A DNA stretch of 64,000 nucleotides from an uncultured Gammaproteobacteria bacterium (lineage in GTDB: Bacteria; Patescibacteriota; Patescibacteriia; UBA9934), in assembly GCA_964452565.1 (NCBI GenBank), contig CAYVLY010000001.1:291009-355008 (forward strand). The letters are read 5' to 3'. Every line of letters starts with the position of its first letter. Within the stretch, counting starts at the first letter, position 1. Shown here piece by piece: positions 5,960 to 55,906 of this stretch. The notes beneath the pieces are model-generated. The model saw only the letters and a list, made by a program, of their open reading frames with translations, was not told the DNA's origin and did not search any database. A program made the translations under genes and the position numbers.

Positions 5960-6008
5960 AAGCGCCACCCTCTCGGGGTGGCGTATCGTGCTTTAGTTAA
6001 ACTTATTC

Positions 6009-6031
6009 AGTTGAACTAAAATAGTTCAACT
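6009..6031. repeat. REP-like palindrome AGTTGAACTAAAATAGTTCAACT (copy 1, immediately 3' of RAYT); part of a roughly 45-nt conserved unit tagttaaactt..agttgaactaaaatagttcaact
   Basis: Perfect 9-bp arms AGTTGAACT/AGTTCAACT around AAAAT; same unit repeated at about 6692 and 15896. Confidence 0.8.
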
Positions 6032-6598
6032 GAAATCCAGCGGCACACCAAATCTAATCCAATCTTCTAGAAATCTTTGATATTCTGAATAATCTCTGAA
6101 CTCATCTTCTATAATAGAATTATCTATAATATCGGAATCTCTAAAAACCGACCTAAGACTCGACCATTTATAATCACGCACAAATCTAAGTGCATCTTCG
6201 ACATCTAAACCACCGCCTTTCCAATTATTTGAAATAAATTTTAGAGGATTCAAATGGATATAACGAAACAGATGCAATAAATAGCCATCACGGTCGACTA
6301 ATTTGCGCTTATATCGTGTCTCAAACAAACTACCGGAACGCTGATTTCGCTTATTGAAATATAATGTGTAAGTAGTCCCTATCTTATGCATAAATGTTGC
6401 AATCCCACCTTCAGACGATTCTTCCAACAAAAAATGGAAATGGTTGTCCATGAGGCAAAAAGCATGGAACCTTACTAACTTTTTACCGTCTTCATATGCA
6501 AAACGCCGCATCTGAGAAATAAACCTTTTGCGATCCTGGTCGTCGTCATAGACTGAACGTTTATCAACGCCACGATTATAAATATGATAATAAGACAT
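6026..6598 (-). CDS. REP-associated tyrosine transposase (RAYT), IS200/IS605-like Y1 transposase (TnpA_REP)
   Basis: HUH motif in ...FCLMDNHFHFLLEE... and catalytic Tyr region ...FETRYKRKLV...; flanked on both sides by the same palindromic repeat. Confidence 0.8.
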   Translation of the reverse strand: MSYYHIYNRGVDKRSVYDDDQDRKRFISQMRRFAYEDGKKLVRFHAFCLMDNHFHFLLEESSEGGIATFMHKIGTTYTLYFNKRNQRSGSLFETRYKRKLVDRDGYLLHLFRYIHLNPLKFISNNWKGGGLDVEDALRFVRDYKWSSLRSVFRDSDIIDNSIIEDEFRDYSEYQRFLEDWIRFGVPLDFS

Positions 6599-6691
6599 AA
6601 AACTCCCATTACGGGAGTGTTTATATACTCATCACATCATCTTCAAAAGCCTTAGTCAACCTTAGCTGTATATAACTTGTTAAACTTGGTT

Positions 6692-6714
6692 AGTTGAACT
6701 AAAATAGTTCAACT
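6692..6714. repeat. REP-like palindrome AGTTGAACTAAAATAGTTCAACT (copy 2, immediately 5' of RAYT)
   Basis: Identical palindrome in direct orientation to copy 1; preceded by the same gttaaacttggttagttgaact leader. Confidence 0.8.
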
Positions 6715-6718
6715 AAAA

Positions 6719-8122
6719 TCAGACAGCCGCGATTGCTTCGGAATACGTGGGAAATGCATGCAACATACTTTCGACCTTATCGAAGCTTACATTCAAATGC
6801 ATCGCAAGCGCCAGCTCGTGAATAACATCTCCAGCATGCTCGCCAACCATCTGCGCTCCCAAAATCCTTCCTGTTCGTTTTTCGATAATCACTTTTAGCA
6901 AACCTTTACGCTTATTCTCTGCGACTGCGCGTCCCAAGGCCCCAACTGGAAATGATCTACTTGCAGCCTTCAGTTTCTTGCCCTTAGCATCTTTCATTGT
7001 AATACCAACCGAGGCAACCTCTTGATGCGCAAATGTCACACATGGCACCACTCTATTATCAATCGACCTCATCTTTCCTGCAGTTGTACACATATTCCAT
7101 GCAACAACCTCCCCATCTCTATGCGCCGTGTGCGTCAACCGTAAAGCACCAGAAACATCTCCTGCTGCAAAAATATGCTTCTGCGAAGTCTGAAGCTTCT
7201 TATTCAAAACTAATTGCCCGCGATCACTTACCCTTACTTTTGCCTTTCCCAACTTCAAATCTTTGATGTTAGATCGCTTTCCTGCTGCAACGATCAGTTT
7301 ATCAACTACTATCCTATTACGAGCTTTTCGACCCTCCTGATACACTAACTCAACTTTTGATCCGATTTTCTTAACTGACAAAACCTTTGACTTAGTCAGG
7401 AGATTCACACTCCGCTTTTTCATATCAGCCTGCACAAGCATTGCTATCTCCTCATCTTCATATCCGAGAATATGAGGCGCTATCTCAAATAAATGCACCT
7501 TTGTACCAATCATGCTAAAGAAGGTCGTGAATTCTACACCAACAGGACCACCGCCTATAATCGCGACTGATCTTGGTTGACTCTTAAGCGATACAACCTG
7601 CTTGTAAGTCAAATACGGTACCTTATCGATTCCATCAACCGGCGGCACCCAATCAACTACTCCGGTTGCTATAACAATCTTCTTTGCCTTGTACTTCTTT
7701 TTACCGATCTTAATCGTATGTGGATCAACAAACTCTGCCGAACCTTTTACATATTCAACACCCTTGTCTAGTAATAACTTTTTCAGCCTTTGACCCTTGC
7801 CAGTCACCGTACTCACAACGGCCCGCTTATACTTCATTGCCTGGGAAAAGCTAAACCCAAGTTCACGTGCGGACACGCCATAAGTTGGAAACTCAAACTT
7901 AGCAGCATGATATGCCTTTGCTGATGTGATCATGGCCTTTGTGGGTATACATGCATAGTTTGAACACTCACCTCCAAGCTTGTCTTTCTCAACCAAAATA
8001 ACACTCTTGCCACGCTCGCGCGCACCCAAAGCAGCGCTCAATCCAGCTGAACCGCCGCCGATAACCAAAACATCAGTTACTATCGCCTTTGATCGAACTA
8101 ACTGTTTTTTCCTCCTTTTCAT
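6719..8122 (-). CDS. Class I pyridine nucleotide-disulfide oxidoreductase (dihydrolipoyl dehydrogenase / mercuric reductase-like flavoprotein)
   Basis: FAD-binding VLVIGGGSAGLSAALGA; redox-active disulfide GGECSNYACIPTK; NAD-binding IIGGGPVGVEF; C-terminal dimerisation HAFPTYSEA. Confidence 0.8.
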   Translation of the reverse strand: MKRRKKQLVRSKAIVTDVLVIGGGSAGLSAALGARERGKSVILVEKDKLGGECSNYACIPTKAMITSAKAYHAAKFEFPTYGVSARELGFSFSQAMKYKRAVVSTVTGKGQRLKKLLLDKGVEYVKGSAEFVDPHTIKIGKKKYKAKKIVIATGVVDWVPPVDGIDKVPYLTYKQVVSLKSQPRSVAIIGGGPVGVEFTTFFSMIGTKVHLFEIAPHILGYEDEEIAMLVQADMKKRSVNLLTKSKVLSVKKIGSKVELVYQEGRKARNRIVVDKLIVAAGKRSNIKDLKLGKAKVRVSDRGQLVLNKKLQTSQKHIFAAGDVSGALRLTHTAHRDGEVVAWNMCTTAGKMRSIDNRVVPCVTFAHQEVASVGITMKDAKGKKLKAASRSFPVGALGRAVAENKRKGLLKVIIEKRTGRILGAQMVGEHAGDVIHELALAMHLNVSFDKVESMLHAFPTYSEAIAAV

Positions 8123-15839: not shown

Positions 15840-15881
15840 AATAGGAATATTGTATCGATTTGAGGGTATTCTGTCGAATTC

Positions 15882-15930
15882 TTAAGTTAGTTGAACTAAG
15901 TTAGTTGAACCAAAATAGTTCAACTAACTT
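15882..15930. repeat. REP-like element, dimeric copy (gttagttgaactaagttagttgaaccaaaatagttcaactaac)
   Basis: Same AGTTGAAC...AGTTCAACT palindrome family, 9 kb from the RAYT, between two convergent or tandem genes. Confidence 0.7.
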
Positions 15931-15963
15931 TTTAGGATCGATTTATTTCGAATACGGAATGCA

Positions 15964-16015: not shown

Positions 16016-16351
16016 CTACCCCCAAATAGCCCTTGCAACAAGTCGATTTTGATCAGTACGCTCTCTTCCCGCATCGGTACGTCTATATCGATTAACATTC
16101 CCACTTCTACCCTGCGGTGGCCACGAAGAAGATCTTCGACATGTCAGCAACCCCTCTTGAACCATTTTACGAGCCTCTCTTTGCAAGCTTGGCTTACTTG
16201 GGATGCTATTTTCGTCACAGCCCCTGTTCCTAAGTCTTGCAATTATCTGATCAATACTCAGCGAACTGCCCGTGGCAGCAAGCGCTCCGAGTATCAATGC
16301 ATCGGCCCGAATTATCACATTTGTTTTGCGAGCGCTCTTCTTCTTGGACAT
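16016..16351 (-). CDS. hypothetical small basic protein; GC-rich segment
   Basis: Complete ORF followed by a terminator hairpin; local GC well above the genomic background. Confidence 0.4.
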   Translation of the reverse strand: MSKKKSARKTNVIIRADALILGALAATGSSLSIDQIIARLRNRGCDENSIPSKPSLQREARKMVQEGLLTCRRSSSWPPQGRSGNVNRYRRTDAGRERTDQNRLVARAIWG

Positions 16352-20700: not shown

Positions 20701-21257
20701 GAATCACCCCCTTGCTGCTGCTGGATCTTGGCGTAGTGTAGTTCAGTAAGGTGATGGACAAGATGATCATAGCCATCGACGATCGTGATGCGCTCTACCG
20801 CTCGAATCTCCTCCTCGGGCATGTCTGGACCACGTACAGCCACCAGCTGTGGGCTTTGTACCTCCCTTTTTCTACTAAGCCCACCGATGTCTGCGTCAGC
20901 CCTTCTGAATTCACGCCAAAAGTAGAAAACATTCTGCCATCTTGACACATCCAAGACAATCACATGAATAGTCCTCTCGGACTCATCAAGGCTACGACCC
21001 CTCTTCCACTTCCATGCCAAAACCTCATATGCGCGAGTAGCGTAACACGGAACGCGGCCGATGGTATATGGCATGAGGCTACCACCAATCTCAGACATGT
21101 GTGCCCCCAATGTCTCCCATTGCTGAACACTGAGCACGCCACCATCGAGAATCAAAAGAACGTTCAGTCCACTCATGGTTTTTCTCCTTTCATTCCACTC
21201 GTGGAGATTTAATGTACTAGCCATGGCCAATTTTGTCAAAAGCAAAGAGCCCTGCAC
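20697..21257 (-). CDS. hypothetical protein, paralog quartet member C (alternative start MASTLNLH at about 21224)
   Basis: N-terminus identical to member B through the 147-bp repeat; ORF-track start is a GTG inside the hairpin. Confidence 0.5.
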   Translation of the reverse strand: MQGSLLLTKLAMASTLNLHEWNERRKTMSGLNVLLILDGGVLSVQQWETLGAHMSEIGGSLMPYTIGRVPCYATRAYEVLAWKWKRGRSLDESERTIHVIVLDVSRWQNVFYFWREFRRADADIGGLSRKREVQSPQLVAVRGPDMPEEEIRAVERITIVDGYDHLVHHLTELHYAKIQQQQGGDS

Positions 21258-21347
21258 CTTATTGGCACAGGACCACGAATAGCATGGGCTATGAGACTAG
21301 CCAAGTTCTGGATCTGTGAGGATCTTGCTGAGTGCAGCCTCGAGCTC
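21201..21347. repeat. 147-bp direct repeat copy 1 (100% identical to 21788..21934). It spans the 3' end of one paralog, the intergenic hairpin and the 5' end of the next.
   Basis: Direct sequence comparison: gtggagatttaatgtactagccatggcc...gcagcctcgagctc is identical in both copies. Confidence 0.85.
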
Positions 21348-21833
21348 CTCAGTCGTATTGACCACAATCGCATCGCCATAGTCACCAGGGGGCGGATTAA
21401 CCAGGATAATTGGCATGGCTTGTACCTCGTCCCTGCCAATATAGCGACTCTGCGCGTTCGCTACAGCTTGGTCTGATTGATACCCCTTCATAAGATGCAT
21501 ACCCCTAGGTCCGAAATCAATCAGAATGGCTATCAGGGAACCACCTCCGCCAAGCTCCTTACGTCCAGCATGGCGGCATATTTCAATTTCTATCATCTCC
21601 CGCAGACATGCCTGTTTTGGGAGCTTGGGCTTCACCCAAAGCTGCACCTCGAGTCGATAGCCCACATCTACCAAATCTTCAGGAGCAAAGTAATAACCTC
21701 TCAGATTCGTTACCTTATCTTCAAGGTAAATCACAACGTATCTTTCCTGCATTTTGAACCCTTCCTTCTCATTACAGTGGAGATTTAATGTACTAGCCAT
21801 GGCCAATTTTGTCAAAAGCAAAGAGCCCTGCAC
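21297..21833 (-). CDS. hypothetical protein, paralog quartet member B
   Basis: N-terminus identical to C; C-terminus ...PPPGDYGDAIVVNTTEELEAALSKILTDPELG nearly identical to member A. Confidence 0.5.
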   Translation of the reverse strand: MQGSLLLTKLAMASTLNLHCNEKEGFKMQERYVVIYLEDKVTNLRGYYFAPEDLVDVGYRLEVQLWVKPKLPKQACLREMIEIEICRHAGRKELGGGGSLIAILIDFGPRGMHLMKGYQSDQAVANAQSRYIGRDEVQAMPIILVNPPPGDYGDAIVVNTTEELEAALSKILTDPELG

Positions 21834-21934
21834 CTTATTGGCACAGGACCACGAATAGCATGGGCTATGAGACTAGCCAAGTTCTGGATCTGTGAGGATC
21901 TTGCTGAGTGCAGCCTCGAGCTCTTCGGGCGTGT
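21788..21934. repeat. 147-bp direct repeat copy 2
   Basis: Identical to 21201..21347. Confidence 0.85.
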
Positions 21935-22385
21935 TGACCACGATTGCCTCGCCATACTCACCCGGCGGCGGGCAGATGAGGACGATCGGAATCGGTGACA
22001 GGATCAAGTCCAATGGCAGTTGCTGGAGCTGCGCTTCGAAAAACCTACCGGCAAGCCTCATGATGTCCTTGGCTTTTGGATAGCGCCTCAGAGACTCGCC
22101 GGCGCAAACCAGATCACCAAAGACCAGCAATGCCTTATAGCCTCGTCCACTCGCCGACCACTCCCAGATCGCATCGAGTGCGATCAACTGGATAGCGATA
22201 CTGACGGGACAAATAAGCCCATGATATGCGGGGCCTGGACAACCTTCAGGTGACCCAACAACCGCGAAGCTCGGCCCGACTGATCGCCTTAGAGAATAAC
22301 TCAGATCCTCAAGGGCCCGATACATCTCATTACGTCTGCTCCAGATCGAATAGTCGCATACAACATAAACGCTGGGAATCGGCAT
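21873..22385 (-). CDS. hypothetical protein, paralog quartet member A
   Basis: C-terminus ...PPPGEYGEAIVVNTPEELEAALSKILTDPELG shared with B. Confidence 0.5.
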   Translation of the reverse strand: MPIPSVYVVCDYSIWSRRNEMYRALEDLSYSLRRSVGPSFAVVGSPEGCPGPAYHGLICPVSIAIQLIALDAIWEWSASGRGYKALLVFGDLVCAGESLRRYPKAKDIMRLAGRFFEAQLQQLPLDLILSPIPIVLICPPPGEYGEAIVVNTPEELEAALSKILTDPELG

Positions 22386-31092: not shown

Positions 31093-33144
31093 CTAGAAAT
31101 TATCCTCAAGCGAACTTACCGAATCATACACATCATCAACATCATAGTCGCCTGCATCGTCAATATCGCTACCAAACGAATAGTTTGAGAAGAACGCATC
31201 AGAAATATCATCGATCTGTTGATTCCAATCGGATCCATACAGATCTTCAGCAATATCCTCCGAGGCAATCGCGCGCAATACTCCGCCCTGCTCTACAGCA
31301 TAAACCGTGTTAACAGTTTGGAACTTAACCATCTTAACTCCCGGTCGATAGGTCACGTTTGATCCAAGTGGCGCATCAGCCATTACAGTTGAATCTATAA
31401 TCACAATATCATCAAAACTTTCAAACCAGGTGAAATAAACTTTTGAGTTTGGAAATGCATGACGCTCACCACTGCTGTCATAGTAATACACGGCACGGCA
31501 TGGATCATTCACATCTGTTGAATCAATACATTGTGATTTGATTAATACCTCTGTATCCAGATCAGCAATATCAGTTATCACGCCTGATGGGTCATCACTG
31601 TAAGTAGTTTCGTCTGGTTCAGTGGGCTCAGTAGATTCGGACGCGACACCAACAGTAATCGAACTTGTTGATCCAGTTGTCGAATTGCCAACTTCATCCT
31701 CACAGACTACATATGCGGAATATGTTCCATCTGAACCAAATGTGTAGCCACTTGAGAATGTACCATCACCTAAATCAGACATTGCGCTATGCAATGTGCC
31801 ATTCAGATATAGGTAGCAGAGATCAATACTTGTCAATGCATCTGTAGCAGTAACAGTCAATGTAGTTGCTACTCCCTCTGTAGCTGATATTGGACTAACT
31901 GTCGAAACAGTCGGCCCTGTTTGATCAGAAACAACGGTCACCGAAGATGCCTCGCTAGAATTTCCAACAAGATCAACCGCCTTAACGCTCACCTCATGAG
32001 ACCCCTCTGTAACTGATAGTACATAACTTTCACTCGATCCAACATCTACATATCCATCTCCATCTTGGTCAACCTCATAATGATCAATTCCGGTATCATC
32101 TGTTGCCGCATCCCATGTTAGTTGGATTGATGAAGTTGCCGTGGGGGAGTTTGATGACAGATTACTTACCGCAGACGGCCCCTCTTCATCTTGTAAGTAT
32201 AAAAAGCCAACTCCCTCTGAGTTGAATCCGACTATCTTCAAAGGATCACTAGGAGAGATTTCAACGTCATAGATAAAGTACATAAGGCTCTCATCTGGCA
32301 GATCAACACTTGTCCAAGTAGCTCCCTGATCATCAGTCGTATAAACAGCACTTAAACCAACAGCTGCACCAAAATAGATTGAGTAGAAATCAAACGTACT
32401 TAGATTAGCTGACTCCAGACCACTAACATCTGACCAGTTTACTCCACTATTAGTCGTATAAAGGAGTCCATCGTCAGATGCGATGAATCCTCTGGCAGTA
32501 TTTATAAAATATACATCTGAAAAATCATCAGTGCCGCCAGGACTCTCATCAACCCAGGTCGAGCCACCATCGATAGTCATAATAAATGTTCCATTATCTC
32601 CAACAGCGTACCCGTAATTTGAGCTCAAGAAATAAGCACCATTAAGATCCTCTGTAACACCTGAGCCCTGCGGGGTCCATGAATCTCCACCATCACCAGT
32701 TACATATATGACTCCCGATTCTCCAACTATCCATCCATTATCTGAATCGTACATCTCTATTCTTCTAAAATCATAACTGCCAAGAATGGACGCTTTGCTC
32801 CATGAATCTCCAAAGTCATCTGTTTTATAAACTGCACCATTCTCACCAATAACAATCACTGTGTTCTCATCAATTATCTTAATGTCCCAAAGAACATCGG
32901 TTGTTGGAGCATGTTCAGTGGTGCTTTCCCAGCCGTCCTGTGTTAATAGCACATTTGAAAAAGCCATGGCTGGATCATCTACCACGACTGCACCAATATC
33001 ACTACTGTAGTGATCTAAGCCTATAACATAGCCATCTGATGACTCATATAAACCAGCCCAATCTGCTGCATGGGCGCTTGATACACCTACGGCGCAGAAT
33101 AATAGTGCTACAAACAGCACTGAAAAATACTTAAGTAATCTCAT
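31093..33144 (-). CDS. large secreted BNR/Asp-box repeat protein with a conserved roughly 170-aa C-terminal domain shared with 42459..44873
   Basis: Signal peptide MRLLKYFSVLFVALLFCAVGVSSAHA; repeated S/DxDxGxxW boxes (DFGDSWS, DGGDSWT, DGGSTWV, NSGVNWS, DQGATWT); Ser/Thr-rich linker; the C-terminal domain aligns with its paralog. Confidence 0.7.
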   Translation of the reverse strand: MRLLKYFSVLFVALLFCAVGVSSAHAADWAGLYESSDGYVIGLDHYSSDIGAVVVDDPAMAFSNVLLTQDGWESTTEHAPTTDVLWDIKIIDENTVIVIGENGAVYKTDDFGDSWSKASILGSYDFRRIEMYDSDNGWIVGESGVIYVTGDGGDSWTPQGSGVTEDLNGAYFLSSNYGYAVGDNGTFIMTIDGGSTWVDESPGGTDDFSDVYFINTARGFIASDDGLLYTTNSGVNWSDVSGLESANLSTFDFYSIYFGAAVGLSAVYTTDDQGATWTSVDLPDESLMYFIYDVEISPSDPLKIVGFNSEGVGFLYLQDEEGPSAVSNLSSNSPTATSSIQLTWDAATDDTGIDHYEVDQDGDGYVDVGSSESYVLSVTEGSHEVSVKAVDLVGNSSEASSVTVVSDQTGPTVSTVSPISATEGVATTLTVTATDALTSIDLCYLYLNGTLHSAMSDLGDGTFSSGYTFGSDGTYSAYVVCEDEVGNSTTGSTSSITVGVASESTEPTEPDETTYSDDPSGVITDIADLDTEVLIKSQCIDSTDVNDPCRAVYYYDSSGERHAFPNSKVYFTWFESFDDIVIIDSTVMADAPLGSNVTYRPGVKMVKFQTVNTVYAVEQGGVLRAIASEDIAEDLYGSDWNQQIDDISDAFFSNYSFGSDIDDAGDYDVDDVYDSVSSLEDNF

Positions 33145-33330: not shown

Positions 33331-33404
33331 TCTACTTCATGGTTCCCGGACAGGGATTCGAACCCCGATTTCCTGGACCAAAACCAGGCGTCCTGCCATT
33401 AGAC
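33331..33404 (-). tRNA. tRNA-Gln (anticodon TTG) with encoded CCA
   Basis: Manual fold: 7-bp acceptor tcccgga/tccggga, U8, D-stem gtct/ggac with a GG loop, anticodon stem cctgg/ccagg around loop ttTTGgt, 4-nt variable loop, T-arm cgggg-TTCGAAT-ccctg, discriminator A then CCA. Confidence 0.8.
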
Positions 33405-33518
33405 GATCCGGGAGTGTAGCGAGTGGACTGAAAATCTACTTGTATATTTTTCAGTCCCGAGCGCAACGATACGGATACCAAAGTATCCGGGAGTGATCGC
33501 GCGAGGATAATACCGAAT

Positions 33519-42458: not shown

Positions 42459-44873
42459 TTATAACGAATCATCAACAGATTCTGCAGAGCTCTTGTGGAC
42501 GTCAATATCATAGTCATCTGCGTCATTGATATCTGATCCAAGGGTATAGTTTGAATAGAACGCATCAGATATGTCATCGATCTTGGTATTCCAGTCCTCA
42601 CCATAAAGCTCCGCCGCAATCTCCTCAGTTGCAATTGCATGCAGCACCCCACCCAAGCTTACAGCATAAACAGTATCAACGGTCTGGAACTTCACCATCT
42701 TCTGTCCCGGTCGGTATGTAATATTTGACCCAAGACTTATCTCTGACATCACCTGTGTTGTTACAAATGCAATATCATCAAAGTCATCAAACCATGTGAA
42801 GTATACTTTTTCATTTGGAAACGCGTGTCTGACCCCATCTTCGCTATAGTAGTAAACAGCACGACACGGAGCGTTTATATCTACTTCTGAGTCCCCGCAT
42901 GAAGTTTTAATCAAGATGCTGGTATCAAGATCGTCAATATTAGATACGATCGTAGCCCCAGTCTCAGGCGCGATTGTTGGCTCATCGGTTACTGTAACCG
43001 GCGTTGGCGTCTCTTCAGATGATGTAGAAGTAACGGTTATAGTGAATTCCCCACTGGATCCAGTATTTCCTGCAATATCTGTACATCGAATCTCTGCAGT
43101 ATAAGTACCTGCTTGAGAATACGTCTTTGAATATGTCGCAGTCCCATCTGCCGCCCCCCAGCCTGCCGAAATAGTTGTTGGTGCAACAAATTCACCATCC
43201 TCATAAAATCGGCACTGCGCTACGTAACCCTCGTCATAATATGAAACCTCCATGGAAACCTCGGTTCCCTCTGTAACTGATATATCTCCAAGAGATCCAA
43301 CTGTTGGCGATGTTATATCACCCGGCCCCTCACCCTCATAACTGATTGTTAACTCAATTGTTTCTCCTGTTGTTGAATTACCTGCCCTGTCCTCGCATGT
43401 TGCATAAAGGTACAATGTATCGCCCCACATTGTAATCATGTCTTTTGAAAAGTATGTGCCATTGTCAGTCATCTCCATGTCAGATGTTGTTTCATAAGTC
43501 GGGTCATAAACATACATTGTGCACGTTTCAACCTCATTATTGTCTGACACGTACGTCTTGTATTCATTTGCCCCACTTTCAACACTTGTTGGAGAGATCT
43601 CAGAGACAACTGGCGCCTCTGTATCAATAACAAAAACAAGCGACGACACTTCACTCACGTTTCCCTCCGAATCAACAGCTCGAAGATATGCGGTGTGAGA
43701 TTCTTCAGAAAGATCTGATTCAACTGTGTACGATGTGACATTTCCGATGTTTGTGTAATCGTCATCATCAATCTTAATCTCGTAATAACTCACATCGTCA
43801 TCTGAATCAACTGCTGCATCCCAGCCAAGTTCTGGGGTTAGATCACTTGTTGCCTCACGACCGCTGCTGAGCGCCAAGTTCGCAGGTGCCTCTGGATTCT
43901 CATTTGAATCACTCATGAGCTTTATTGATCCAGCTGATCCAACAAGAAAAGCAGCTTCAGTTGATGGATAGTACACGCCATAATATGTCTCCAAAGCATC
44001 AACTCCAGCATCTTCCCAGGTCTCACCTCCATCCTCAGTAATCAAAACCTCCAAAAAGAATGTTGTTAAAATCCCATTATCCTCATCTGCAAATGAGATG
44101 TCACTAATAATGTCTGCTGGATCAATCAAATCAGTCACGCCAATATCCTCCCAGTTTGTACCGCCATCCTCGGTCCGTAAAAGTGTAGCGTTGTCTCCAC
44201 CAGCCCATGCAATATCAGTGTTATCCTCAATCACATGAACTGTATAGAGATATTCTGATGTGCCTGAAGTTTGGATTTCCCACTCTTCTCCACCAACATC
44301 TGTATACAGAATCACACCAGAAGCACCCACAGCCCAACCAGTCAATGACTGTACTATATCGATTGAATGCAGCGTTGTGCTTACTCCACTTTCTTGCTCA
44401 TCCCAAAACTCGCCATCGCTATCTGAGTATTCGATAATACCGCCAGTTCCTACAACCCAACCAAACGTCCCAGTGCTCTCATCAAAATCAATATCATAAT
44501 AAGTTGTCGCGGTGCCAGGTGAATAGTCTAGCCAGGAATCACCATAGTCCTCTGTCCAAATAATAGTTGAATCTTCACCACAAACAAATGTGCCGCCATT
44601 TGTCACAGAAACTCCATGATAGTCTATTGAGCTTTCTGTGACGTTAAACCAGTTCTGGCCGTAATCCGATGAGTATGTGACTGCTCCGTTCTGACCTACT
44701 GCAAAGATTACTTCATCATTGATACCATCAACAGCGTTTAAGTCTTCAGTCATCACAGAATCTGCATCTTCCCAAGTTATTGTTCTGGCGATAACAAAAA
44801 ACGGCGCAAAGGCTACAAAGAATATAAAAGCAAAAATTGTTAATGTATGAAACACTCTTTTTGTCATAGGCAT
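42459..44873 (-). CDS. large secreted BNR/Asp-box-type repeat protein, paralog of 31093..33144 with the same conserved C-terminal domain
   Basis: N-terminal signal/TM; repeated xxDxGxxW boxes (DYGQNWF, DYGDSWL, TEDGGTNWE, EDGGETWE); C-terminal roughly 170 aa about 65% identical to the paralog. Confidence 0.7.
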   Translation of the reverse strand: MPMTKRVFHTLTIFAFIFFVAFAPFFVIARTITWEDADSVMTEDLNAVDGINDEVIFAVGQNGAVTYSSDYGQNWFNVTESSIDYHGVSVTNGGTFVCGEDSTIIWTEDYGDSWLDYSPGTATTYYDIDFDESTGTFGWVVGTGGIIEYSDSDGEFWDEQESGVSTTLHSIDIVQSLTGWAVGASGVILYTDVGGEEWEIQTSGTSEYLYTVHVIEDNTDIAWAGGDNATLLRTEDGGTNWEDIGVTDLIDPADIISDISFADEDNGILTTFFLEVLITEDGGETWEDAGVDALETYYGVYYPSTEAAFLVGSAGSIKLMSDSNENPEAPANLALSSGREATSDLTPELGWDAAVDSDDDVSYYEIKIDDDDYTNIGNVTSYTVESDLSEESHTAYLRAVDSEGNVSEVSSLVFVIDTEAPVVSEISPTSVESGANEYKTYVSDNNEVETCTMYVYDPTYETTSDMEMTDNGTYFSKDMITMWGDTLYLYATCEDRAGNSTTGETIELTISYEGEGPGDITSPTVGSLGDISVTEGTEVSMEVSYYDEGYVAQCRFYEDGEFVAPTTISAGWGAADGTATYSKTYSQAGTYTAEIRCTDIAGNTGSSGEFTITVTSTSSEETPTPVTVTDEPTIAPETGATIVSNIDDLDTSILIKTSCGDSEVDINAPCRAVYYYSEDGVRHAFPNEKVYFTWFDDFDDIAFVTTQVMSEISLGSNITYRPGQKMVKFQTVDTVYAVSLGGVLHAIATEEIAAELYGEDWNTKIDDISDAFYSNYTLGSDINDADDYDIDVHKSSAESVDDSL

Positions 44874-49770: not shown

Positions 49771-50262
49771 ATGTGAATGAGTTAGTCCCGTGGGGTTTAA
49801 AAAACCACGGCCTTAACGCCGTGAAACAATGAGATCTGATCAAAAGTTCGATCAAATAGCCTCGATAGGACTTACGCTCTTGCAAGCAACCTATTGTCTT
49901 TAGCATTAAGTTGTCAGAAGTATAGAATATTGGCCAAATTATGTCAAGAAGCAGAACGCTCGCCCTTTCGGACGAGCAGTACGTGTACGTGTGGCGCTGA
50001 GGCTACTCAGAGCAGTACTAGCTTTTGATGCCAAACAGCTCAGTGATGATGCCGACAGCCTCTACCTTGGCCCGTTCCAGGTCCCCATGCAGTGTATACT
50101 GCTCCCAGAAAAGCCGCATCAACAAGCAACGCAAGCACATATTTTCATGACCACAAGCCATGTCTCTTTCCTTTCCCTGTGACAAGTAACACTAGAGGTG
50201 GCAATTAAAATAGCACCTATCCCCTTTCTTGTCAATTATCTGAGGTCTAAGTGCTTATCAAT

Positions 50263-50390
50263 CCGACCAAAGGCTTCGACTTTCCTCTTGTCATCCCTGG
50301 CTACGACCAGGGATCCATCGATTATCGAACTCTATAGTTGATGGATTCCCGCTTTTGCGGGAATGACAATAGATCAAAAACTTTGGTCAG
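50263..50390. repeat. Island hairpin repeat, long form (the structured element at 50289..50368 is inserted in the repeat loop)
   Basis: atccgaccaaaggcttcgactttc[ctcttgtcatcc...gaatgaca]atagatcaaaaactttggtcag. Confidence 0.7.
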
Positions 50391-50467
50391 AGCGGCGCGT
50401 TTTCCTTGCGCCGCACGTGACTATTCTCGCGCGGGAGGGAGAATAGTGTCGCTAGGCCTCTTGGGGC

Positions 50468-51652
50468 CTAGAAGAAGACTGTTGGTCCAACCATCTCATC
50501 GTGCGCGATCATATGGTAGTCAACGCCATCATCGGAAACCATGATCGAGTCTTCCGGAACCGTGACAGTCACTCGATCATCACCACTCGCAGCAGTCGCT
50601 CCAGTGCCGTCCACCGAGAACGTGACTCCGAGGATATCTTCGGCATCTACATTGATCGGCGCGTACGAAACGCCATCAAAGCTTGCGGTATGCGTACAGA
50701 TCGTTAGGATGCAAGTATCGCCGGGATAGCACGGGCCATAGCCATCCTCCATACATGCACCGCTTTCTACCGCTGCCTCACCAAGCAAGGCGCCGGAGTC
50801 GGTGTCGTACATGTACACAGAGCTCAGCCCTGCACACCATCCAGTGTCATCGTAGCTCCAGCAATCGACAAACACGGATGTGGGACTGATCTGGAGGTCA
50901 GAGCATTCATGCAGAGTGCTGAAGTTCGTATTGAGCGCATCGACGATTCCGGGAGTGGTTGAGGTATCGATCGTATACACATCGTCGACGACCAGCTCAT
51001 TGCTCATCTCGACCTCGGTCCCATCAGCCAATTCGACATCCCACCGGCAGGTGTTGTCCACATAGTTCATGAAGTCCGGGCTTTCACCGCCGTTGTTGGC
51101 CAGGATCACGACTCTGTCTGCAGTTGAGACGATATCGGATGGATCCAGGATGTCGAATGCGAATCCGACTTCGACACGGATGAACTCTGTGACGTCCTCA
51201 GAGATGTCGCACACCAGGTTGAGTGCTGTGGCGCGACGTCCAACGTTGAACCCACTATCAAGCAACAGGTGCTCATCAAGGATTATCTCAGTTGGCGGCT
51301 CGACAGTGCTGCCAGTCATGGCGTTGGACAGACGACAGCGCTGAACATACTGACTCAGATCAGTGAAGCCACGGTCGACTCCATCCATGCCGTAGTCGAT
51401 CAGTGCCGTTGGGCTCACGCTGAACACGTGGATGGGCCTTGGGTCTCCTGACCCAACCTCTGCTCCACGTTCTTCAACCTGCCGCAAGGTCAATGTACCG
51501 AAGTACACATTCTCCTGACCGGGCTGCACCTCTACCAATCCAGACCCCGGGCCCTCGAACTTGACCTTGAGGATCGAAGCATGCGAGCTGTGTGGCAAGA
51601 GATAGCCCATGAGGGCAACGATGAGAACAAACAGAATATTTGCGAAACGCAT
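50468..51652 (-). CDS. secreted Cys-rich hypothetical protein (island cassette)
   Basis: Signal peptide MRFANILFVLIVALMGYLLPHSSHA; 394 aa with diverse composition. Confidence 0.55.
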   Translation of the reverse strand: MRFANILFVLIVALMGYLLPHSSHASILKVKFEGPGSGLVEVQPGQENVYFGTLTLRQVEERGAEVGSGDPRPIHVFSVSPTALIDYGMDGVDRGFTDLSQYVQRCRLSNAMTGSTVEPPTEIILDEHLLLDSGFNVGRRATALNLVCDISEDVTEFIRVEVGFAFDILDPSDIVSTADRVVILANNGGESPDFMNYVDNTCRWDVELADGTEVEMSNELVVDDVYTIDTSTTPGIVDALNTNFSTLHECSDLQISPTSVFVDCWSYDDTGWCAGLSSVYMYDTDSGALLGEAAVESGACMEDGYGPCYPGDTCILTICTHTASFDGVSYAPINVDAEDILGVTFSVDGTGATAASGDDRVTVTVPEDSIMVSDDGVDYHMIAHDEMVGPTVFF

Positions 51653-52014
51653 AGCGTTTCCTTCCGGCCTTAGCGGCCTTGCATAGTACGGAATGCACTA
51701 CATCGGACGCGATGTCCGATCAAAGAGTTCGATGATAGTTGAAATGTCTAATCGTTCGGCCAAAGGCCTCACTTGTTGAAATTGTTGACGTTGCTTATCG
51801 CACCGTAAACATCTTCAACAACTTAAACAGTTTAAACATTCCTATCAAACACTTAAATCAGACCCCCTGCACTGGAGAGAGACCGGTGCAGGGATTCTGT
51901 AGTACTAGATAATTAGTACGTCCAAAAGACTCGAAATTATTCAAATACTTTGGATGAACCCCCTGCCGACGAAATTCGGCAGGGGCCAGGACTTGGGTTT
52001 CACGGATTTGGAAT

Positions 52015-52054
52015 CCGACCGAAGGGTTCAAGTTTGCTTAAACACTTTGGTCGG
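52015..52054. repeat. Island hairpin repeat CCGACCGAAGGGTTCAAGTTTGCTTAAACACTTTGGTCGG
   Basis: 10-bp stem CCGACCGAAG/CTTTGGTCGG (one G-U pair if RNA); loop carries the T-loop-like GGTTCRA. Confidence 0.75.
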
Positions 52055-52101
52055 ACGATGCGCTCAGATGAACGCACCGTAGAACGGTGTGAGTAGTCGG
52101 C

Positions 52102-52293
52102 CTAGCCGTCTGCGAACACCAGGCACCTGTCCTTGGTGGCGTCGGGGTTGAGGTGCTTCCGCAGCGCGGGATCGAAGGCCACATTCTCGCAACCTTCCGG
52201 GATCTCGTACTCGCCCAGGCTGACACCGGTGCACCCCGTCGCGGAGAAGCATGCGATGAAGGCCAGGGCCAGGCTGATGATGGTCTTACGCAT
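52102..52293 (-). CDS. small lipoprotein, 4 Cys (island cassette)
   Basis: MRKTIISLALAFIACFSATGC lipobox. Confidence 0.5.
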   Translation of the reverse strand: MRKTIISLALAFIACFSATGCTGVSLGEYEIPEGCENVAFDPALRKHLNPDATKDRCLVFADG

Positions 52294-52349
52294 GATGAAC
52301 TCCGTGGAGGCGCGGCAAAGCCGCTAGGGTTGAAGGTATCACTCTCGAA

Positions 52350-52389
52350 CCGACCGAAGGGTTCGAATTACTTCAAACACTTTGGTTGA
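52350..52389. repeat. Island hairpin repeat (ccgaccgaagggttcgaattacttcaaacactttggttg)
   Basis: Same family. Confidence 0.75.
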
Positions 52390-52454
52390 CCCCCTGCCGC
52401 GTATGTTGGCAGGGGCGCTCACGCGAGTCGCGTGGCGTCGTAGTAGTTGTGGGC

Positions 52455-52886
52455 CTACCAGCCCTGGAGCTGCTTGATCGTGAGAGCGGTTTCCTGTGCG
52501 CACACCAGATGAGGGTGCGTGATGAACGAAGCGGTACTCTGGTCCATGATCCTCATGAGCGCCGCCAGCAGATCGCACGGCCTGCCACCGAAGTGCAGAC
52601 CCACAGGACTCACGGCAGCCAGGAACATGCCCAGCAGCCACACCTCGCCGTCAGCGGTGCTGGCACTGTAGGTGATGGTCCAGGAACGTGGATCGTCCAG
52701 GTGTCTCACCACCCGGAGGCGTGATTCACCGGAACCTAGGTACGTCCTCCGGTCACTGGATCCTGACCAGGTGTCCCGCCCCATCAGCTCGCTGAGCCTG
52801 GCGATGTCTTTGGACAACACCACCGTGCTTATCTCGATCTGGCGGGCAAGGAATCCCCCGAAGAGCCTCTCAAAGATACCGAACAT
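52455..52886 (-). CDS. hypothetical cytoplasmic protein (island cassette); start at MFGIFERLFGG
   Basis: ORF between two repeat copies; ORF-track start 52931. Confidence 0.45.
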   Translation of the reverse strand: MFGIFERLFGGFLARQIEISTVVLSKDIARLSELMGRDTWSGSSDRRTYLGSGESRLRVVRHLDDPRSWTITYSASTADGEVWLLGMFLAAVSPVGLHFGGRPCDLLAALMRIMDQSTASFITHPHLVCAQETALTIKQLQGW

Positions 52887-52942
52887 GGCATCTCCTCTCA
52901 CCTGGCTCTGGGGCCAGGGCTCTGGTTTCACGGATTTGGAAT

Positions 52943-52982
52943 CCGACCGAAGGGTTCGATATTCATCAAACGCTTTGGTCGG
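52943..52982. repeat. Island hairpin repeat (ccgaccgaagggttcgatattcatcaaacgctttggtcgg)
   Basis: Same family. Confidence 0.75.
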
Positions 52983-53197
52983 TCCCGCCCAGACATTATG
53001 CGGGAGACGAAGAAAAGGGACTACAGGCCAAGCAATCTACAGATACACTCGACGATGACCAACCCAACCAGTATACCAAGGCCCAGGCAAACCAGATCTC
53101 TGTAGAAATTGGTACGGGTGCGACTATCAAACAAAGATACCTACTTCCACCTGGCGTCAACCAGGAGTTATGGGGTTTCAAGAATGGACACAGCGGC

Positions 53198-53374
53198 CTA
53201 CTTGGGCTTCCATTCTCCAGGACAGACACCCTGACGCTCGTACAAGGTGATTGCAGTGCTGCAGTACTCCGCCAACTCCTCCTTATTCATCATGATCGGA
53301 GGCTTGGGAAGGTACCACAACGCAAACACCGCCAGCGCCAACAGCGCACATCCAGCCAGCAGTTCTCTCGACAT
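53198..53374 (-). CDS. small secreted protein of about 58 aa (island cassette; below the ORF-track size cutoff)
   Basis: Manual translation MSRELLAGCALLALAVFALWYLPKPPIMMNKEELAEYCSTAITLYERQGVCPGEWKPK. Confidence 0.4.
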   Translation of the reverse strand: MSRELLAGCALLALAVFALWYLPKPPIMMNKEELAEYCSTAITLYERQGVCPGEWKPK

Positions 53375-53448
53375 TCCAACTCTCTTTCACCTAGTAAAAA
53401 CCGGGGTCAGAGGTGAGGGTTCGGATTTGCGATCCTATTTGACGCATA

Positions 53449-53488
53449 CCGACCAAAGGCTTCGAATTGTTTCAAAAACTTTGGTCAG
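53449..53488. repeat. Island hairpin repeat (ccgaccaaaggcttcgaattgtttcaaaaactttggtcag), followed by a shared roughly 45-nt module gtaggtgaggcttgtcgtcaattcgacactacctc
   Basis: Same family; the extra module is also present after the 54067 copy. Confidence 0.7.
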
Positions 53489-53541
53489 ACCCCCCGCCCA
53501 GACATTATGCGGGGGACGTAAGACGTAGGTGAGGCTTGTCG

Positions 53542-54012
53542 TCAATTCGACACTACCTCGAGGGTGGGATCTTCGGATTCGTGTTCTTCTCCATGGCGTG
53601 GCATGATCGCCATACCCAGGAGAATCCACGCGATCCACGGGAAGAGCCACTCGAACGGCCAGAGCACCCAATCCGCCAGGAACTGACGAAAAGGAGTCCG
53701 ACTCGGACAGCCCTGAGTGAACCACTCGATGGCGAAGAACCGAGGTTCCGTATCCCGATTCATCTTGCCCTGATAGTGAGAATCAGCCCATCCGCATTGC
53801 CACCACACACCACCACGATCACGTTCTAGGCGGCAGCTGGCGTAGCGGTCGTAACCAAGCATGAGCGAGGTTATGGTAGCTGCGTTCTTCTCGCCATCAC
53901 CATCGATGTCGAGGATAGTCCTATCCACACAGCCAACTGCACACGACCCAAGGGACAATCCAAGGGCGATGAAGAAAGCTACATTGAAGATGATTCCTCT
54001 GAGTCGCTCCAT
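53542..54012 (-). CDS. lipoprotein with a C-terminal TM helix (island cassette); start at MERLRG
   Basis: MERLRGIIFNVAFFIALGLSLGSC lipobox; Trp-rich C-terminal helix. Confidence 0.5.
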   Translation of the reverse strand: MERLRGIIFNVAFFIALGLSLGSCAVGCVDRTILDIDGDGEKNAATITSLMLGYDRYASCRLERDRGGVWWQCGWADSHYQGKMNRDTEPRFFAIEWFTQGCPSRTPFRQFLADWVLWPFEWLFPWIAWILLGMAIMPRHGEEHESEDPTLEVVSN

Positions 54013-54066
54013 AGCAACTCCTTCCACCAGATTTCTCTGGGTTGAAGATTGGAGTTCGGATTGGAT

Positions 54067-54107
54067 CCGACCGGAGACTTTGAAATACTTTCAAAATCTT
54101 TGGTCAG
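54067..54107. repeat. Island hairpin repeat (ccgaccggagactttgaaatactttcaaaatctttggtcag)
   Basis: Same family, diverged loop. Confidence 0.7.
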
Positions 54108-54175
54108 ACCCCCCACCCGAAAACAATGTGGGGGTCAAAGACGTGGGTGAGGCTTGTCGTCAATTCGACACTACC

Positions 54176-54643
54176 TCAGGGGCTGGTGCTGGTCCTGCAC
54201 TGCATCGAATAGACGATGAAGGTGAACAGCGCTGATACCAAGACGCAGACCTGGCAGGTCCTGCCCAGGAAAGTCTCAAACGGCATCGTGCTTGGAACGT
54301 AGATCACGAGGCCAGGGTAGATGGCTACCACCAAGCACGTGAAGATGCCAAGTGCCATCACAGTAGTGTACATGGCGCAGAACATACACATCACGTTGCT
54401 GGTGAAGGACTTGCGTACGCCATCCACGAACAGCAAGCCTGTTCCGAGAAGGCAAAGCACGACGCCAACAAGGAACGATACGAAGTACACGAGATACATC
54501 GGTATATCTTCCACCTGGCTGTAGCCAGGAGTTAAGGGTTCAAGCTCGGATTCATGATCCGACCAAGAACCTCGAGAGAGTTCAAGATTCTTGGTCGGCG
54601 GCGGCCTGTCGAGAGTATCGACTTCCGCCTTGTACGTACTCAT
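54176..54643 (-). CDS. 4-TM membrane protein (island cassette)
   Basis: Four hydrophobic helices; Cys-rich. Confidence 0.5.
   Translation of the reverse strand: MSTYKAEVDTLDRPPPTKNLELSRGSWSDHESELEPLTPGYSQVEDIPMYLVYFVSFLVGVVLCLLGTGLLFVDGVRKSFTSNVMCMFCAMYTTVMALGIFTCLVVAIYPGLVIYVPSTMPFETFLGRTCQVCVLVSALFTFIVYSMQCRTSTSP
54559..54598. repeat. Island hairpin repeat, diverged copy lying inside the 5' end of the 54176..54643 ORF (ccgaccaagaacctcgagagagttcaagattcttggtcgg)
   Basis: Same stem; loop variant. Confidence 0.5.
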
Positions 54644-54649
54644 ACGTAG

Positions 54650-54757
54650 TCAACAGCCCTGCAGGAAAAGCAAGGGGAAAATCATGGCGACTATCACCAC
54701 GCCCATCATAATCAGTGCCCAGCTCACCTCATCCATTCCACTTTTTTGGGAGTCCAT
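54650..54757 (-). CDS. putative 35-aa membrane peptide (island)
   Basis: Manual translation MDSQKSGMDEVSWALIMMGVVIVAMIFPLLFLQGC. Confidence 0.25.
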   Translation of the reverse strand: MDSQKSGMDEVSWALIMMGVVIVAMIFPLLFLQGC

Positions 54758-54828
54758 AGGACTCCTTTCCCCGGCTTATTGCCGGATGCGTCTCTAGGAC
54801 GCCTTCTGAATTGACTCTTTTACTATAA

Positions 54829-54869
54829 CCAACCGAAGGGTTCGATTATTCATCAAACACTTTGGTCGG
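54829..54869. repeat. Island hairpin repeat (ccaaccgaagggttcgattattcatcaaacactttggtcgg)
   Basis: Same family. Confidence 0.75.
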
Positions 54870-54915
54870 ACGATGCACCCGGGTGGTGCATCGTACGGGA
54901 CGAGGGGGTTGTTGG

Positions 54916-55362
54916 CTACCAGTGCATGAAGTCGTGGATGCTCTGGGCCCCTGTGCGAACGTGTGTGAACAGCTGCAGGAGATCGCCATTCTCACAGCGC
55001 ATCCAGCCCGAGATCAAGCTCCTGAGCCTGGACATACGCTGACTAGACATATTCGTGGGCTTGGTGTCTCCCAGGGCGTTGAGCAGCACGGGCAGCACGG
55101 GCGCTTCATATACAGTCGGCTGGCCCCACAGGAAGTACTCTAGCTTCCAGGTGCCATCGGGCTGCTGCTTGGCCTCGAGGAACTCGAATCCCTGCGGCCA
55201 CGCGAACCTGAGCGCCTCCTGGCCGTCTTCCTGCTCAGACTCGATGGTCATGCGGCGCTTGGCGCTCTCATGGGCTCGGGCCATGGCCTCAGCCGAGACG
55301 GTCGCCTCCACTTGAACTGACCGACTCTTCCGCTTCGCGCTTGGACGAGTAATCACACTCAT
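54916..55362 (-). CDS. hypothetical protein (island cassette)
   Basis: ORF between repeat copies. Confidence 0.45.
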   Translation of the reverse strand: MSVITRPSAKRKSRSVQVEATVSAEAMARAHESAKRRMTIESEQEDGQEALRFAWPQGFEFLEAKQQPDGTWKLEYFLWGQPTVYEAPVLPVLLNALGDTKPTNMSSQRMSRLRSLISGWMRCENGDLLQLFTHVRTGAQSIHDFMHW

Positions 55363-55413
55363 CTCCTCTCACCTGGCTCTGGGGCCAGGACTCTGGTTGA
55401 ACGGATTTAGAAT

Positions 55414-55537
55414 CCGACCGAAGGGTTCAACTTTCTCTTGTCATCCCAGCCGTAGAGCCGGGATCCATCGTTTATCGAACTCGATAGTTGATGGATTCCT
55501 GCCTACGCAGGAATGACATATTAAACACTTTGGTCGG
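55414..55537. repeat. Island hairpin repeat, long form (the structured element at 55439..55518 is inserted at the same loop position as in 50263..50390)
   Basis: ccgaccgaagggttcaactttct[cttgtcatccc...ggaatgaca]tattaaacactttggtcgg. Confidence 0.75.
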
Positions 55538-55582
55538 ACGATGCACCCGGGTGGTGCATCGTACGGGAACGGGGAGTTGGGG

Positions 55583-55906
55583 CTACCGCTGGGCCTTGGC
55601 GTGGGCCTTGCGGTCGGCGCCCTGGCGCGGCTGCTGGCCGGACTTGCCGGGCTGGCGATCGGGGCTCTGGGCCTTGCGACCCTTGGGCTGGTTGCCCTGC
55701 CTCGGCGCCTGTGCCCTGGTCTTCGGCTCGGGCTTCTGCACCTCAACCTCCACCTCGACCCGGTCCGTGATGGACTCGGGCTCGGTGAGCTGGTCGACGA
55801 TGCCGTAGACCACGAGGCCGGTGATCGAGGTGATGCCGAGGCCGATGGCCAGCAGGATGCCAGCCACGATGGCTATGGCAGATGCGGTTCTCTGGTTCCT
55901 GGTCAT
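55583..55906 (-). CDS. small membrane-anchored protein with a basic Gln/Pro/Lys-rich tail (island cassette)
   Basis: TM helix AIAIVAGILLAIGLGITSITGLVVYGIV. Confidence 0.45.
   Translation of the reverse strand: MTRNQRTASAIAIVAGILLAIGLGITSITGLVVYGIVDQLTEPESITDRVEVEVEVQKPEPKTRAQAPRQGNQPKGRKAQSPDRQPGKSGQQPRQGADRKAHAKAQR

Follow-up and report, generated by a model that had tools for sequence, protein, structure and literature searches.

TnpA-REP of Escherichia coli, whose gene and repetitive extragenic palindromic (REP) sequences make up a REPtron, is a monomer that binds a REP hairpin together with guide bases, cuts single-stranded DNA with Mn2+, and needs a mismatch in the hairpin stem (Ton-Hoang et al. 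2012; Messing et al. 2012, PDB 4er8). A second branch of the class-2 TnpA-Y1 proteins, subclass 2.1, is characterized in Table 1 of Quentin et al. (2018, PMC6006769) by two motif sets, the second of which comprises NH[YF]H, F-Q at the W position, Y[IV]HLNP, and a tail "SS". The passages of that survey that deal with the subclass describe a distal C-terminal domain resembling a helix-turn-helix (HTH; Bac_DnaA_C, HTH_23, or HTH_28) and report that a REP-like sequence was not found. Subclass 2.1 corresponds to group 1 of the REP-associated tyrosine transposases (RAYTs) of Bertels et al. (2017, PMC5581495), for which the relevant sections report few flanking repeats. Most of the TIRYT proteins of Di Nocera et al. 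(2013, PMC3733652), which form TIRtrons with their terminal inverted repeats (TIRs), also fall in subclass 2.1; as these authors describe them, some TIRs are self-complementary and the majority carry GGGGWSAS. Here, we analyze a gene for a 190-residue Y1 protein of the HUH endonuclease superfamily that lies between two copies of a palindromic repeat, in a stretch of 64,000 nucleotides (the window; GCA_964452565.1, contig CAYVLY010000001.1, positions 291,009 to 355,008) from a genome of the Candidate Phyla Radiation (CPR; Patescibacteria). Contigs of the same organism added 7.6 kb on the left of the window and 3.0 kb on its right, for a total of 74.6 kb of a 709,517-bp contig. The 725-bp unit at 5996-6720 is probably a REPtron/TIRtron-like locus, that is, a fixed, vertically inherited class-2 Y1 gene bracketed by cognate hairpin repeats. 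It is best regarded as neither a classic GTAG-REP/RAYT system nor an IS200 element.

An earlier note, made from the letters of this DNA alone, had described a 190-residue HUH protein, and the product of the open reading frame (ORF) in question does contain DNHFHFLLEE. Pfam Y1_Tnp (PF01797) covers residues 3-115 with a score of 40 bits against a gathering cutoff of 23, and the same model matches 30 of 30 aligned relatives. H53-F-H55 forms the HUH motif, Y113 of RYIHLNP is the catalytic Tyr, and W144-S-S146 makes up the tail motif; H53, H55, and Y113 are among the invariant residues in the alignment of the 30 relatives. Within the Tyr motif (Y113-I-H-L-N117-P118), N117 is likewise invariant, and H115 is kept in at least 90% of the sequences. 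The note had placed the catalytic Tyr in ETRYKRK, which does not hold up, as Y96 of that motif occupies a column that varies between Tyr and Phe. In E. coli TnpA-REP (4er8), the residue aligned with Y113 is the Tyr of DYIYINP.

A phmmer search of the PDB with the single protein returned nothing relevant, and a profile built from the alignment reached 4er8 only at E=0.15. A structure search was needed. The AlphaFold2 (AF2) model of the 190-residue protein has a mean confidence score (pLDDT) of 95.6, and its top Foldseek match in the PDB is 4er8_A, a complex of TnpA-REP with a REP hairpin (E=2.2e-6); the transposases of IS608 and ISDra2 (2vjv and 2xma) come next, and the three entries span E values from 2e-6 to 8e-5. 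The HUH/Tyr active site is intact, and the fold resembles that of TnpA-REP.

The sole NCBIfam match at E<=1 is REP_Tyr_transpos (NF047646), at 45 bits against an equivalog cutoff of 80. The Tyr motif is of the class-2 type, Y---NP, as opposed to the Y---Q of IS200 (subclass 1.1), and the protein carries N52-H-F-H55, F92-E93 (family consensus F-E/Q), Y113-IHLNP, and W144-S-S146. Judged by the published signature, these motifs fit the second motif set of subclass 2.1. Two other assignments were considered and set aside. A canonical RAYT or TnpA-REP (subclasses 2.2, 2.4, and 2.5) is disfavored by the missed NCBIfam cutoff and by the absence of a GT[AG]G foot. An ordinary IS200/IS605 TnpA of subclass 1.1 would have Y-x-x-x-Q rather than YIHLNP and would be a core-only protein of ∼150 residues, whereas this one has 190 residues including a tail. 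The protein is thus a Y1 HUH enzyme from the RAYT side of the superfamily, not an IS200 TnpA. The earlier note had itself raised an ordinary IS200/IS605 TnpA with a TnpB partner as the competing outcome; the Y---NP motif, the single NCBIfam match, 4er8 as the top structural match, and the absence of TnpB all speak for the note on this point.

The flanking repeats share a modular design. Read in the direction of the gene, a module has the general form GATTTY-AGTTGAACT-ATTTT-AGTTCAACT-N5-AGTTTAAC, in which the unit is a 9-mer, AGTT-S-AACT, that is a self-palindrome around its G/C center. Units 1 and 2 pair to give a stem of 9-12 bp. The claim of two direct flanking copies that contain a palindrome is borne out: the repeats are 42 nt long, 90% identical (38/42), and in direct orientation. 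The 23-mer AGTTGAACTAAAATAGTTCAACT has two exact copies, at 6009-6031 and 6692-6714, and a third, at 15903-15925, that differs by one mismatch; it appeared in none of 100 dinucleotide shuffles. AGTT[GC]AACT is found 7 times in the window against 0.6 expected, and six of the seven lie inside the three window modules. Folded as single-stranded DNA, these modules reach -9.3 to -13.7 kcal/mol with z scores of -3.6 to -5.6 (5′ module, -9.3 kcal/mol, z = -3.6; 3′ module, -11.6 kcal/mol, z = -5.6; module at 15876-15931, -13.7 kcal/mol, z = -4.8). The 5′ module overlaps the oxidoreductase gene upstream, starting inside its stop codon, and 81 nt separate the end of the module from the Y1 ATG. At the other end, the Y1 stop codon (6026-6028) lies inside unit 1 of the 3′ module, and the last three codons (D-F-S) are also within the repeat. 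The same overlap of stop codon and repeat is present at locus L007, the closest relative.

Beyond the flanking pair, the 74.6 kb hold two solo modules, both intergenic, and all four modules lie between genes. The palindrome is not unique to the locus, in agreement with the note, for which uniqueness would have been a refutation. The solo module near 15.9 kb had been called dimeric. A copy does exist there, with one mismatch in the 23-mer, and it is made of three units rather than being simply a dimer. Its units lie at 15889, 15903, and 15917, giving the 14-nt spacing; units 1 and 3, with their flanks, can form a 15-bp stem. This module sits between the T-tract terminator of the gene at 16016-16351 and the start of a nucleotidyltransferase (NTP-transferase) gene at 15839. 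A scan for GTTGAACNAAAATAGTTCAAC across 185,579 species genomes, which do not include the source genome, returned five unrelated single matches.

We then compared 80 loci, drawn from a metagenome scan that kept the best 80 of at least 564 confirmed relatives, plus loci from protein look-up. With a hairpin called when stronger than the 95th percentile of shuffled flanks, one is present upstream at 57/80 loci, downstream at 51/80, and on both sides at 41/80. The upstream hairpin lies mostly 0-30 nt before the ATG in these relatives, and the downstream one overlies the stop codon or borders on it. Across the wider family, the palindromes are 17-40 nt long with locus-specific stems and centers of 1-5 nt. 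Both flanks share at least 17 nt at 62 loci, and the repeat sequence varies from locus to locus; the repeat was found again on either side of the gene at 61 of these 62 loci, a result that the design of the search makes almost inevitable. At L007 (75% identity), each flank bears the three-unit module of the window with few changes, whereas at L008 (Uhrbacteria, 47% identity) another self-palindromic 9-mer, GGCT-W-AGCC, is repeated in four units on each side, with the 14-nt spacing seen here. Other close relatives carry GATC-S-GATC or GGTT-S-AACC units. Paralogue pairs that are 37-50% identical and lie within 10 kb on one contig (L025, L035, L044, and L078) each have their own different hairpin where the flanks are readable. 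Gene and flanking repeat thus co-vary across ∼80 homologous loci, which supports cognate pairing; it is the pattern expected if each protein recognizes its own repeat. RAYT-REP pairs were defined on the same basis of gene-repeat pairing, as laid out in the corresponding part of Quentin et al. (2018, PMC6006769).

The repeats also show how they change. Both window flanks have AGTTTAAC as unit 3, whereas both solo copies and L007 have GTTCAAC, and both L007 flanks have a derived unit 1, AGTTGAAT. Because derived units are shared by the two flanks in each case, the two flanking copies evolve in concert. Upstream of the gene for P0003, a 15-nt unit, CTGCTGGAGGTCGGA, is present in 2 copies at L097 and L100 and in 6 at L098 and L099, on contigs with 99.9-100% identity elsewhere; the number of units in the flanking arrays thus changes quickly. 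Solo copies at other loci amount to 10 in 275 kb.

Among the nearest known counterparts is the TIRYT/TIRtron of Di Nocera et al. (2013, PMC3733652). The class-2 motifs Y---NP, NH[YF]H, F[QE], and Y[IV]HLNP with a proximal "SS" tail are shared, as is a repeat placed just before the start codon and another at or over the stop codon; going by the published passages, so is a low-copy gene with few dispersed repeats. The differences lie in the repeat, which at the CPR locus is direct, is built from three self-palindromic units spaced by 14 nt, and contains GGGGWSAS in none of the four modules. They also lie in the protein, which is without the distal HTH-like (Bac_DnaA_C, HTH_23, or HTH_28) domain, and in the host, CPR/Patescibacteria not being named in the survey passages on TIRYTs and subclass 2.1. 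Clear hairpins are present in most CPR members, whereas the pertinent section of Quentin et al. reports that no REP-like sequence was found for subclass 2.1. The best two plasmid relatives, from Rhodospirillum rubrum and Pseudomonas aeruginosa (L112 and L113), are proteins of 230-235 residues, and the plasmid relatives are at 30-39% identity. They have the first motif set of subclass 2.1 (NH[IV]H, W[QE], YIELNP, and WSS), and in the alignment they run 40-50 residues beyond the CPR proteins, whose members are without the distal HTH-like tail. Both plasmid loci have perfect or near-perfect inverted repeats with GGGGTCAG or GGGGACAG, that is, GGGGWSAS, placed 37 nt ahead of the ATG and 4 nt past the stop codon; the R. 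rubrum repeat is itself a small hairpin. The layout matches that of the CPR locus, where one repeat ends 81 nt ahead of the ATG, the other covers the stop codon, and the pair is direct though each copy is palindromic. Because the layout matches these plasmid relatives and the repeat differs, we file the locus as a subclass 2.1-type REPtron/TIRtron-like unit.

E. coli TnpA-REP (subclass 2.2; 4er8) is the best structural match, with the Tyr of YI-x-x-NP aligned, and it too is a single-copy gene with cognate palindromes on its flanks and further copies of them at other sites in the genome; the presumed mode of action, single-stranded DNA hairpin binding and cleavage, would likewise be shared by analogy. 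By comparison with it, the CPR locus has no 5′ GTAG guide, its stems are perfect rather than bulged, its flanks are direct as opposed to the inverted pairs of bacterial interspersed mosaic elements (BIMEs), a handful of copies rather than hundreds is seen, the C-terminal domain is unlike, and the NCBIfam equivalog cutoff is not reached. The earlier reading of a RAYT with its cognate REPs in classic layout therefore survives in part. The RAYT-side protein and the cognate pairing, by co-variation, stand; the classic arrangement does not, given the lack of a GT[AG]G foot, the perfect stems, the direct flanks, the NCBIfam score, and motifs of the subclass 2.1/TIRYT kind.

On this evidence, we favor a cognate-hairpin locus, for which E. 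coli TnpA-REP and IS608 TnpA suggest a mechanism. By analogy, the Y1 protein would bind its hairpin where the DNA is single stranded, a replication fork being one example, and would cut next to it through a 5′-phosphotyrosine link at Y113, with a metal held by H53 and H55. Rejoining of strands may occasionally seed or remove solo copies, which would account for the few that are seen, and the gene itself would no longer transpose. Several observations weigh against this account. The score against the NCBIfam RAYT model falls far short of the cutoff (45 vs 80 bits), and the C-terminal 70 residues have no recognizable fold, with no PDB match in a Foldseek search of their model. The copy number of the module looks low, on a count that covers 74.6 kb. 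The feet of the four hairpins read GATTTT, GATTTC, AAAGTT, and AAATCT; there is no GTAG or GTGG on either strand of the four modules and no obvious conserved guide or cleavage motif at the foot. The stems are perfect here, whereas E. coli TnpA-REP needs a stem mismatch, and each hairpin arm is itself palindromic, which hairpin recognition does not require. Cleavage and strand transfer by subclass 2.1/TIRYT proteins are, moreover, proposed by analogy only.

The resemblance to IS200 deserves separate attention. One could regard the unit as a minimal autonomous insertion sequence (IS) of ∼725 bp with tnpA only, the direct modules being its left and right ends and its movement a single-strand peel-and-paste; we consider this very unlikely. 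Its size is IS200-like, its end hairpins are direct, a hairpin that occludes the ribosome-binding site (RBS) precedes the ATG, and the fold is common to IS608 and ISDra2 TnpA; IS200/IS608 TnpA (subclass 1.1) indeed shares the HUH/Y1 fold and a unit of ∼0.7 kb with a same-strand subterminal hairpin at each end. The protein, however, has the Y---NP motif rather than Y---Q and an extra tail of 70 residues that IS200 TnpA lacks. There is one copy of the Y1 gene in the 64-kb window and none in the extensions, no multiple identical copies are seen, and no TnpB-like neighbor was found in the window or the extensions (74.6 kb). Paralogues on one contig are 37-50% identical, never near-identical. Across the family, flanking hairpins are inverted at 15 loci and direct at 12, which end-defined excision of a single strand would not tolerate; because inverted pairs occur about as often as direct ones, IS200-type left and right ends are hard to reconcile with the data. 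No phage relatives were found in 2.9 million viral contigs, and 22 of 72,556 plasmids carry relatives, distant ones only, with no close plasmid relatives.

Gene neighborhoods bear on the same question. L007 has the order GH-like (glycoside hydrolase), Pyr_redox, Y1, RNase_H_2, which is the window order except that the window has an extra lipoprotein gene. The Y1 gene again precedes an RNase_H_2 gene at L097 (54% identity). At L101 (48% identity), the run of LDcluster4, a 524-residue protein, GH, and Pyr_redox is present, with the Y1 gene one gene further, between a penicillin-binding protein (PBP) gene and a Mur ligase gene; these two are adjacent in the genome of the window, ∼10 kb away. The gene must thus have moved at least once, which an IS would explain. 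Nonetheless, an adjacency of Y1 with RNase_H_2 or of Pyr_redox with Y1 is kept in L007, L097, and, approximately, L101, and the Y1 gene at its orthologous position in L007 has diverged like its neighbors (75.3% identity, compared with 73.8-86.6% for neighboring genes). The pattern is one of vertical inheritance with rare local relocation, and sections of Bertels et al. (2017, PMC5581495) give a similar picture for RAYTs generally; the low number of flanking repeats that they report for group 1 agrees with the locus as well. The gene behaves as a resident single-copy gene, and this is domestication rather than insertion-sequence behavior. In the window, the lipoprotein gene and a GC-rich hairpin sit between the 3′ module of Y1 and RNase_H_2, whereas in L007 RNase_H_2 adjoins the module directly; the lipoprotein gene was either inserted in the window or deleted in L007.

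Hairpins so close to the ends of a gene could also be mainly expression elements that insulate, stabilize, or autoregulate the Y1 mRNA, the solo copies being similar elements that did not arise by DNA mobilization. We regard this as improbable. In most relatives, the upstream hairpin is 0-30 nt from the ATG and the downstream one is at the stop codon, so both would be transcribed; copy number is low, and REPs are described in parts of the literature as affecting mRNA stability. No T-tract follows the modules on either strand, and separate GC-rich, T-tract terminator-like hairpins accompany the Y1 gene and the 15.9-kb copy, which led us to reject an intrinsic-terminator role for the modules. 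For the Y1 gene itself, the hairpin at 5963..5983 means that the AT-rich module is not the sole candidate terminator. A generic terminator or stabilizer, furthermore, needs neither identical flanks nor a different sequence at each locus and paralogue, and no Rfam family matches at the hairpins. Autoregulation through the flanking hairpins is possible and would be compatible with the cognate-hairpin reading.

The leader has elements of its own (Table 1). IS200 has a hairpin that covers its RBS and damps translation. A small hairpin likewise covers the RBS of the Y1 gene, and by analogy it may play the same damping role. Its DNA fold has z = -4.2, and its equivalent in L007, GCTCCC-TTAAT-GGGAGC, shows a compensatory change on both sides of a base pair. 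RNAalifold on the 5′ leaders of six relatives gave 6 pairs, 4 with double changes, from a poor alignment that lends weak support; for this reason, we use only the compensatory change between the window and L007. The promoter-like element, as TTGACy-N17-TGnnAT with a conserved spacer tail, is also found in L007 and L104. A sigma-70 consensus scanner called no promoter between module and gene, because the second hexamer has no A at position 2.

Table 1. Features at and around the Y1 gene (window coordinates, except for the fourth module)
Feature	Position	Strand	Remarks
Y1 HUH endonuclease gene, 190 aa	6026..6598	-	ORF list, Pfam, NCBIfam, alignment, AF2
5′-flank module	6679..6720	-	GATTTT-AGTTGAACT-ATTTT-AGTTCAACT-AACCA-AGTTTAAC; three units, 14-nt spacing; units 1 and 2 form hairpin
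3′-flank module	5996..6037	-	38/42 direct copy of 5′ module
Solo module	15876..15931	-	AGTTGAACT-ATTTT-GGTTCAACT-AACTT-AGTTCAACT; three units
Fourth module	L110 5455-5490		2.1 kb left of window, in left-hand extension
RBS hairpin ACTCCC-GTAAT-GGGAGT	6602..6618	-	3 nt before ATG; pairs Shine-Dalgarno-like GGGAG
Promoter-like TTGACT-N17-TGTGAT	6631..6659	-	Between 5′ module and gene; proposed from conservation
GC-rich terminator-like hairpin	5963..5983	.	8 pairs, 7 G-C, then CTTTTAGTAG on - strand; between convergent Y1 and lipoprotein genes
Lipoprotein-like gene, 173 aa	5438-5959	+	Signal MRPILMLLLASGC; no Pfam match

The self-palindromic units suggest a further possibility, that they are double-stranded operators, arrays of 9-mers bound by a dimeric protein, possibly by the Y1 protein through its C-terminal domain. 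Such units are seen repeatedly in the close subclade (AGTT-S-AACT, GGCT-W-AGCC, GATC-S-GATC, and GGTT-S-AACC), arrayed at 14-15 bp, and unit number goes from 2 to 6 among otherwise identical contigs. Related loci add a link to DnaA: perfect DnaA-box 9-mers (TTATCCACA or TGTGGATAA) lie at or beside the Y1 hairpins of L035, L056, L072, L086, L097, L101, and others, and in L072 they form the base of the hairpin stem. Their density is 0.71/kb within 200 nt of the Y1 gene compared with 0.04/kb elsewhere, an 18-fold enrichment (odds ratio 17.9, p = 2e-16). There is no DnaA box at the Y1 locus of the window, however, and the window overall is not enriched. The palindromes of the wider family, at 17-40 nt, extend well beyond a pair of operator half-sites, and the 14-nt spacing is exactly that of stem plus loop. 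Nor is an HTH or other DNA-binding domain detectable: none of the 30 family members has a Bac_DnaA_C, HTH_23, or HTH_28 Pfam domain even at E<=5. The idea that the C-terminal part is an HTH like that of DnaA domain IV is unsupported as well, the model of residues 121-190 alone having a pLDDT of 72 and no Foldseek match in the PDB. An operator function accordingly seems to us highly improbable, and we retain the reading of hairpins that are cognate to the Y1 protein.

Other repeats were observed in the same DNA. At 6183-6211 of L110, ∼1.4 kb left of the window in the same genome, there is a palindrome, CAAGGTTTAACCTC-C-GAGGTTGAACCTTG, that closely resembles the cognate hairpin AAGGTTGAACCTCTAGAGGTTCAACCTT of another Y1 homologue (P0008, L104); it may be a relic, or this genome may have a second Y1 gene at another site, to which the repeat belongs. 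The region 50200-57000 contains a dense, unrelated family of ∼45-nt hairpins, CCGACCGAAGGGTTC...AAACACTTTGGTCGG, in 9 copies with an 11-bp stem and a ∼20-nt loop, together with several further repeats (D1, D4, D6-D9, D11, and D14) and long ORFs without a Pfam match. Two pairs of long direct repeats lie inside ORFs, one at 21201-21416 and 21777-21992 (216 nt, 91% identity) and one at 31136-31516 and 42502-42882 (233 and 113 nt, 71-73% identity), and both pairs are probably paralogous genes. The single Rfam match in the window is a tRNA gene at 33343-33413 (-).

The earlier note had considered such a system unusual for a CPR genome and had seen in it a sign of REP proliferation. Neither view is upheld. 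A first homologue search gave 349 matches, including proteins from named Patescibacteria, Uhrbacteria, Woesebacteria, and Curtissbacteria, and the family comprises 2,553 clusters (50% identity) at E<=1e-30; because the family is large and typical of CPR, the locus is not unusual for its host. Proliferation of the repeat is modest at best. Domesticated-transposase genes of this sort are a known, poorly understood kind, and in CPR they are common, not rare. A link between RAYTs or TIRYTs and CPR was not found in the literature searched. Because the pertinent section of Quentin et al. (PMC6006769) found no REP-like partner for subclass 2.1, the clear hairpins of the CPR members are a useful extension, yet of a known kind of system, and the basic picture of RAYT/TIRYT systems is unchanged.

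For the CPR genomes themselves, the usual annotation of these genes as "transposase" or "IS200-like" overstates the load of mobile elements. The ∼80 relatives allow broad comparisons of how hairpins are read by Y1 enzymes and of what purpose the domesticated members serve, and they are a possible source of new HUH-hairpin pairs for protein-DNA tagging. More speculatively, and in our estimation with the chances against it, the CPR clade may hold a very large set of vertically inherited Y1 nucleases, each locked to a private hairpin that flanks its own gene at either end, in which the DnaA-box foot seen in part of the family would tie them to events at replication initiation or the fork rather than to the spreading of repeats. 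If this is true, CPR genomes would offer thousands of natural orthogonal pairs of protein and single-stranded DNA hairpin, with a recognition code that could be read from their co-variation.

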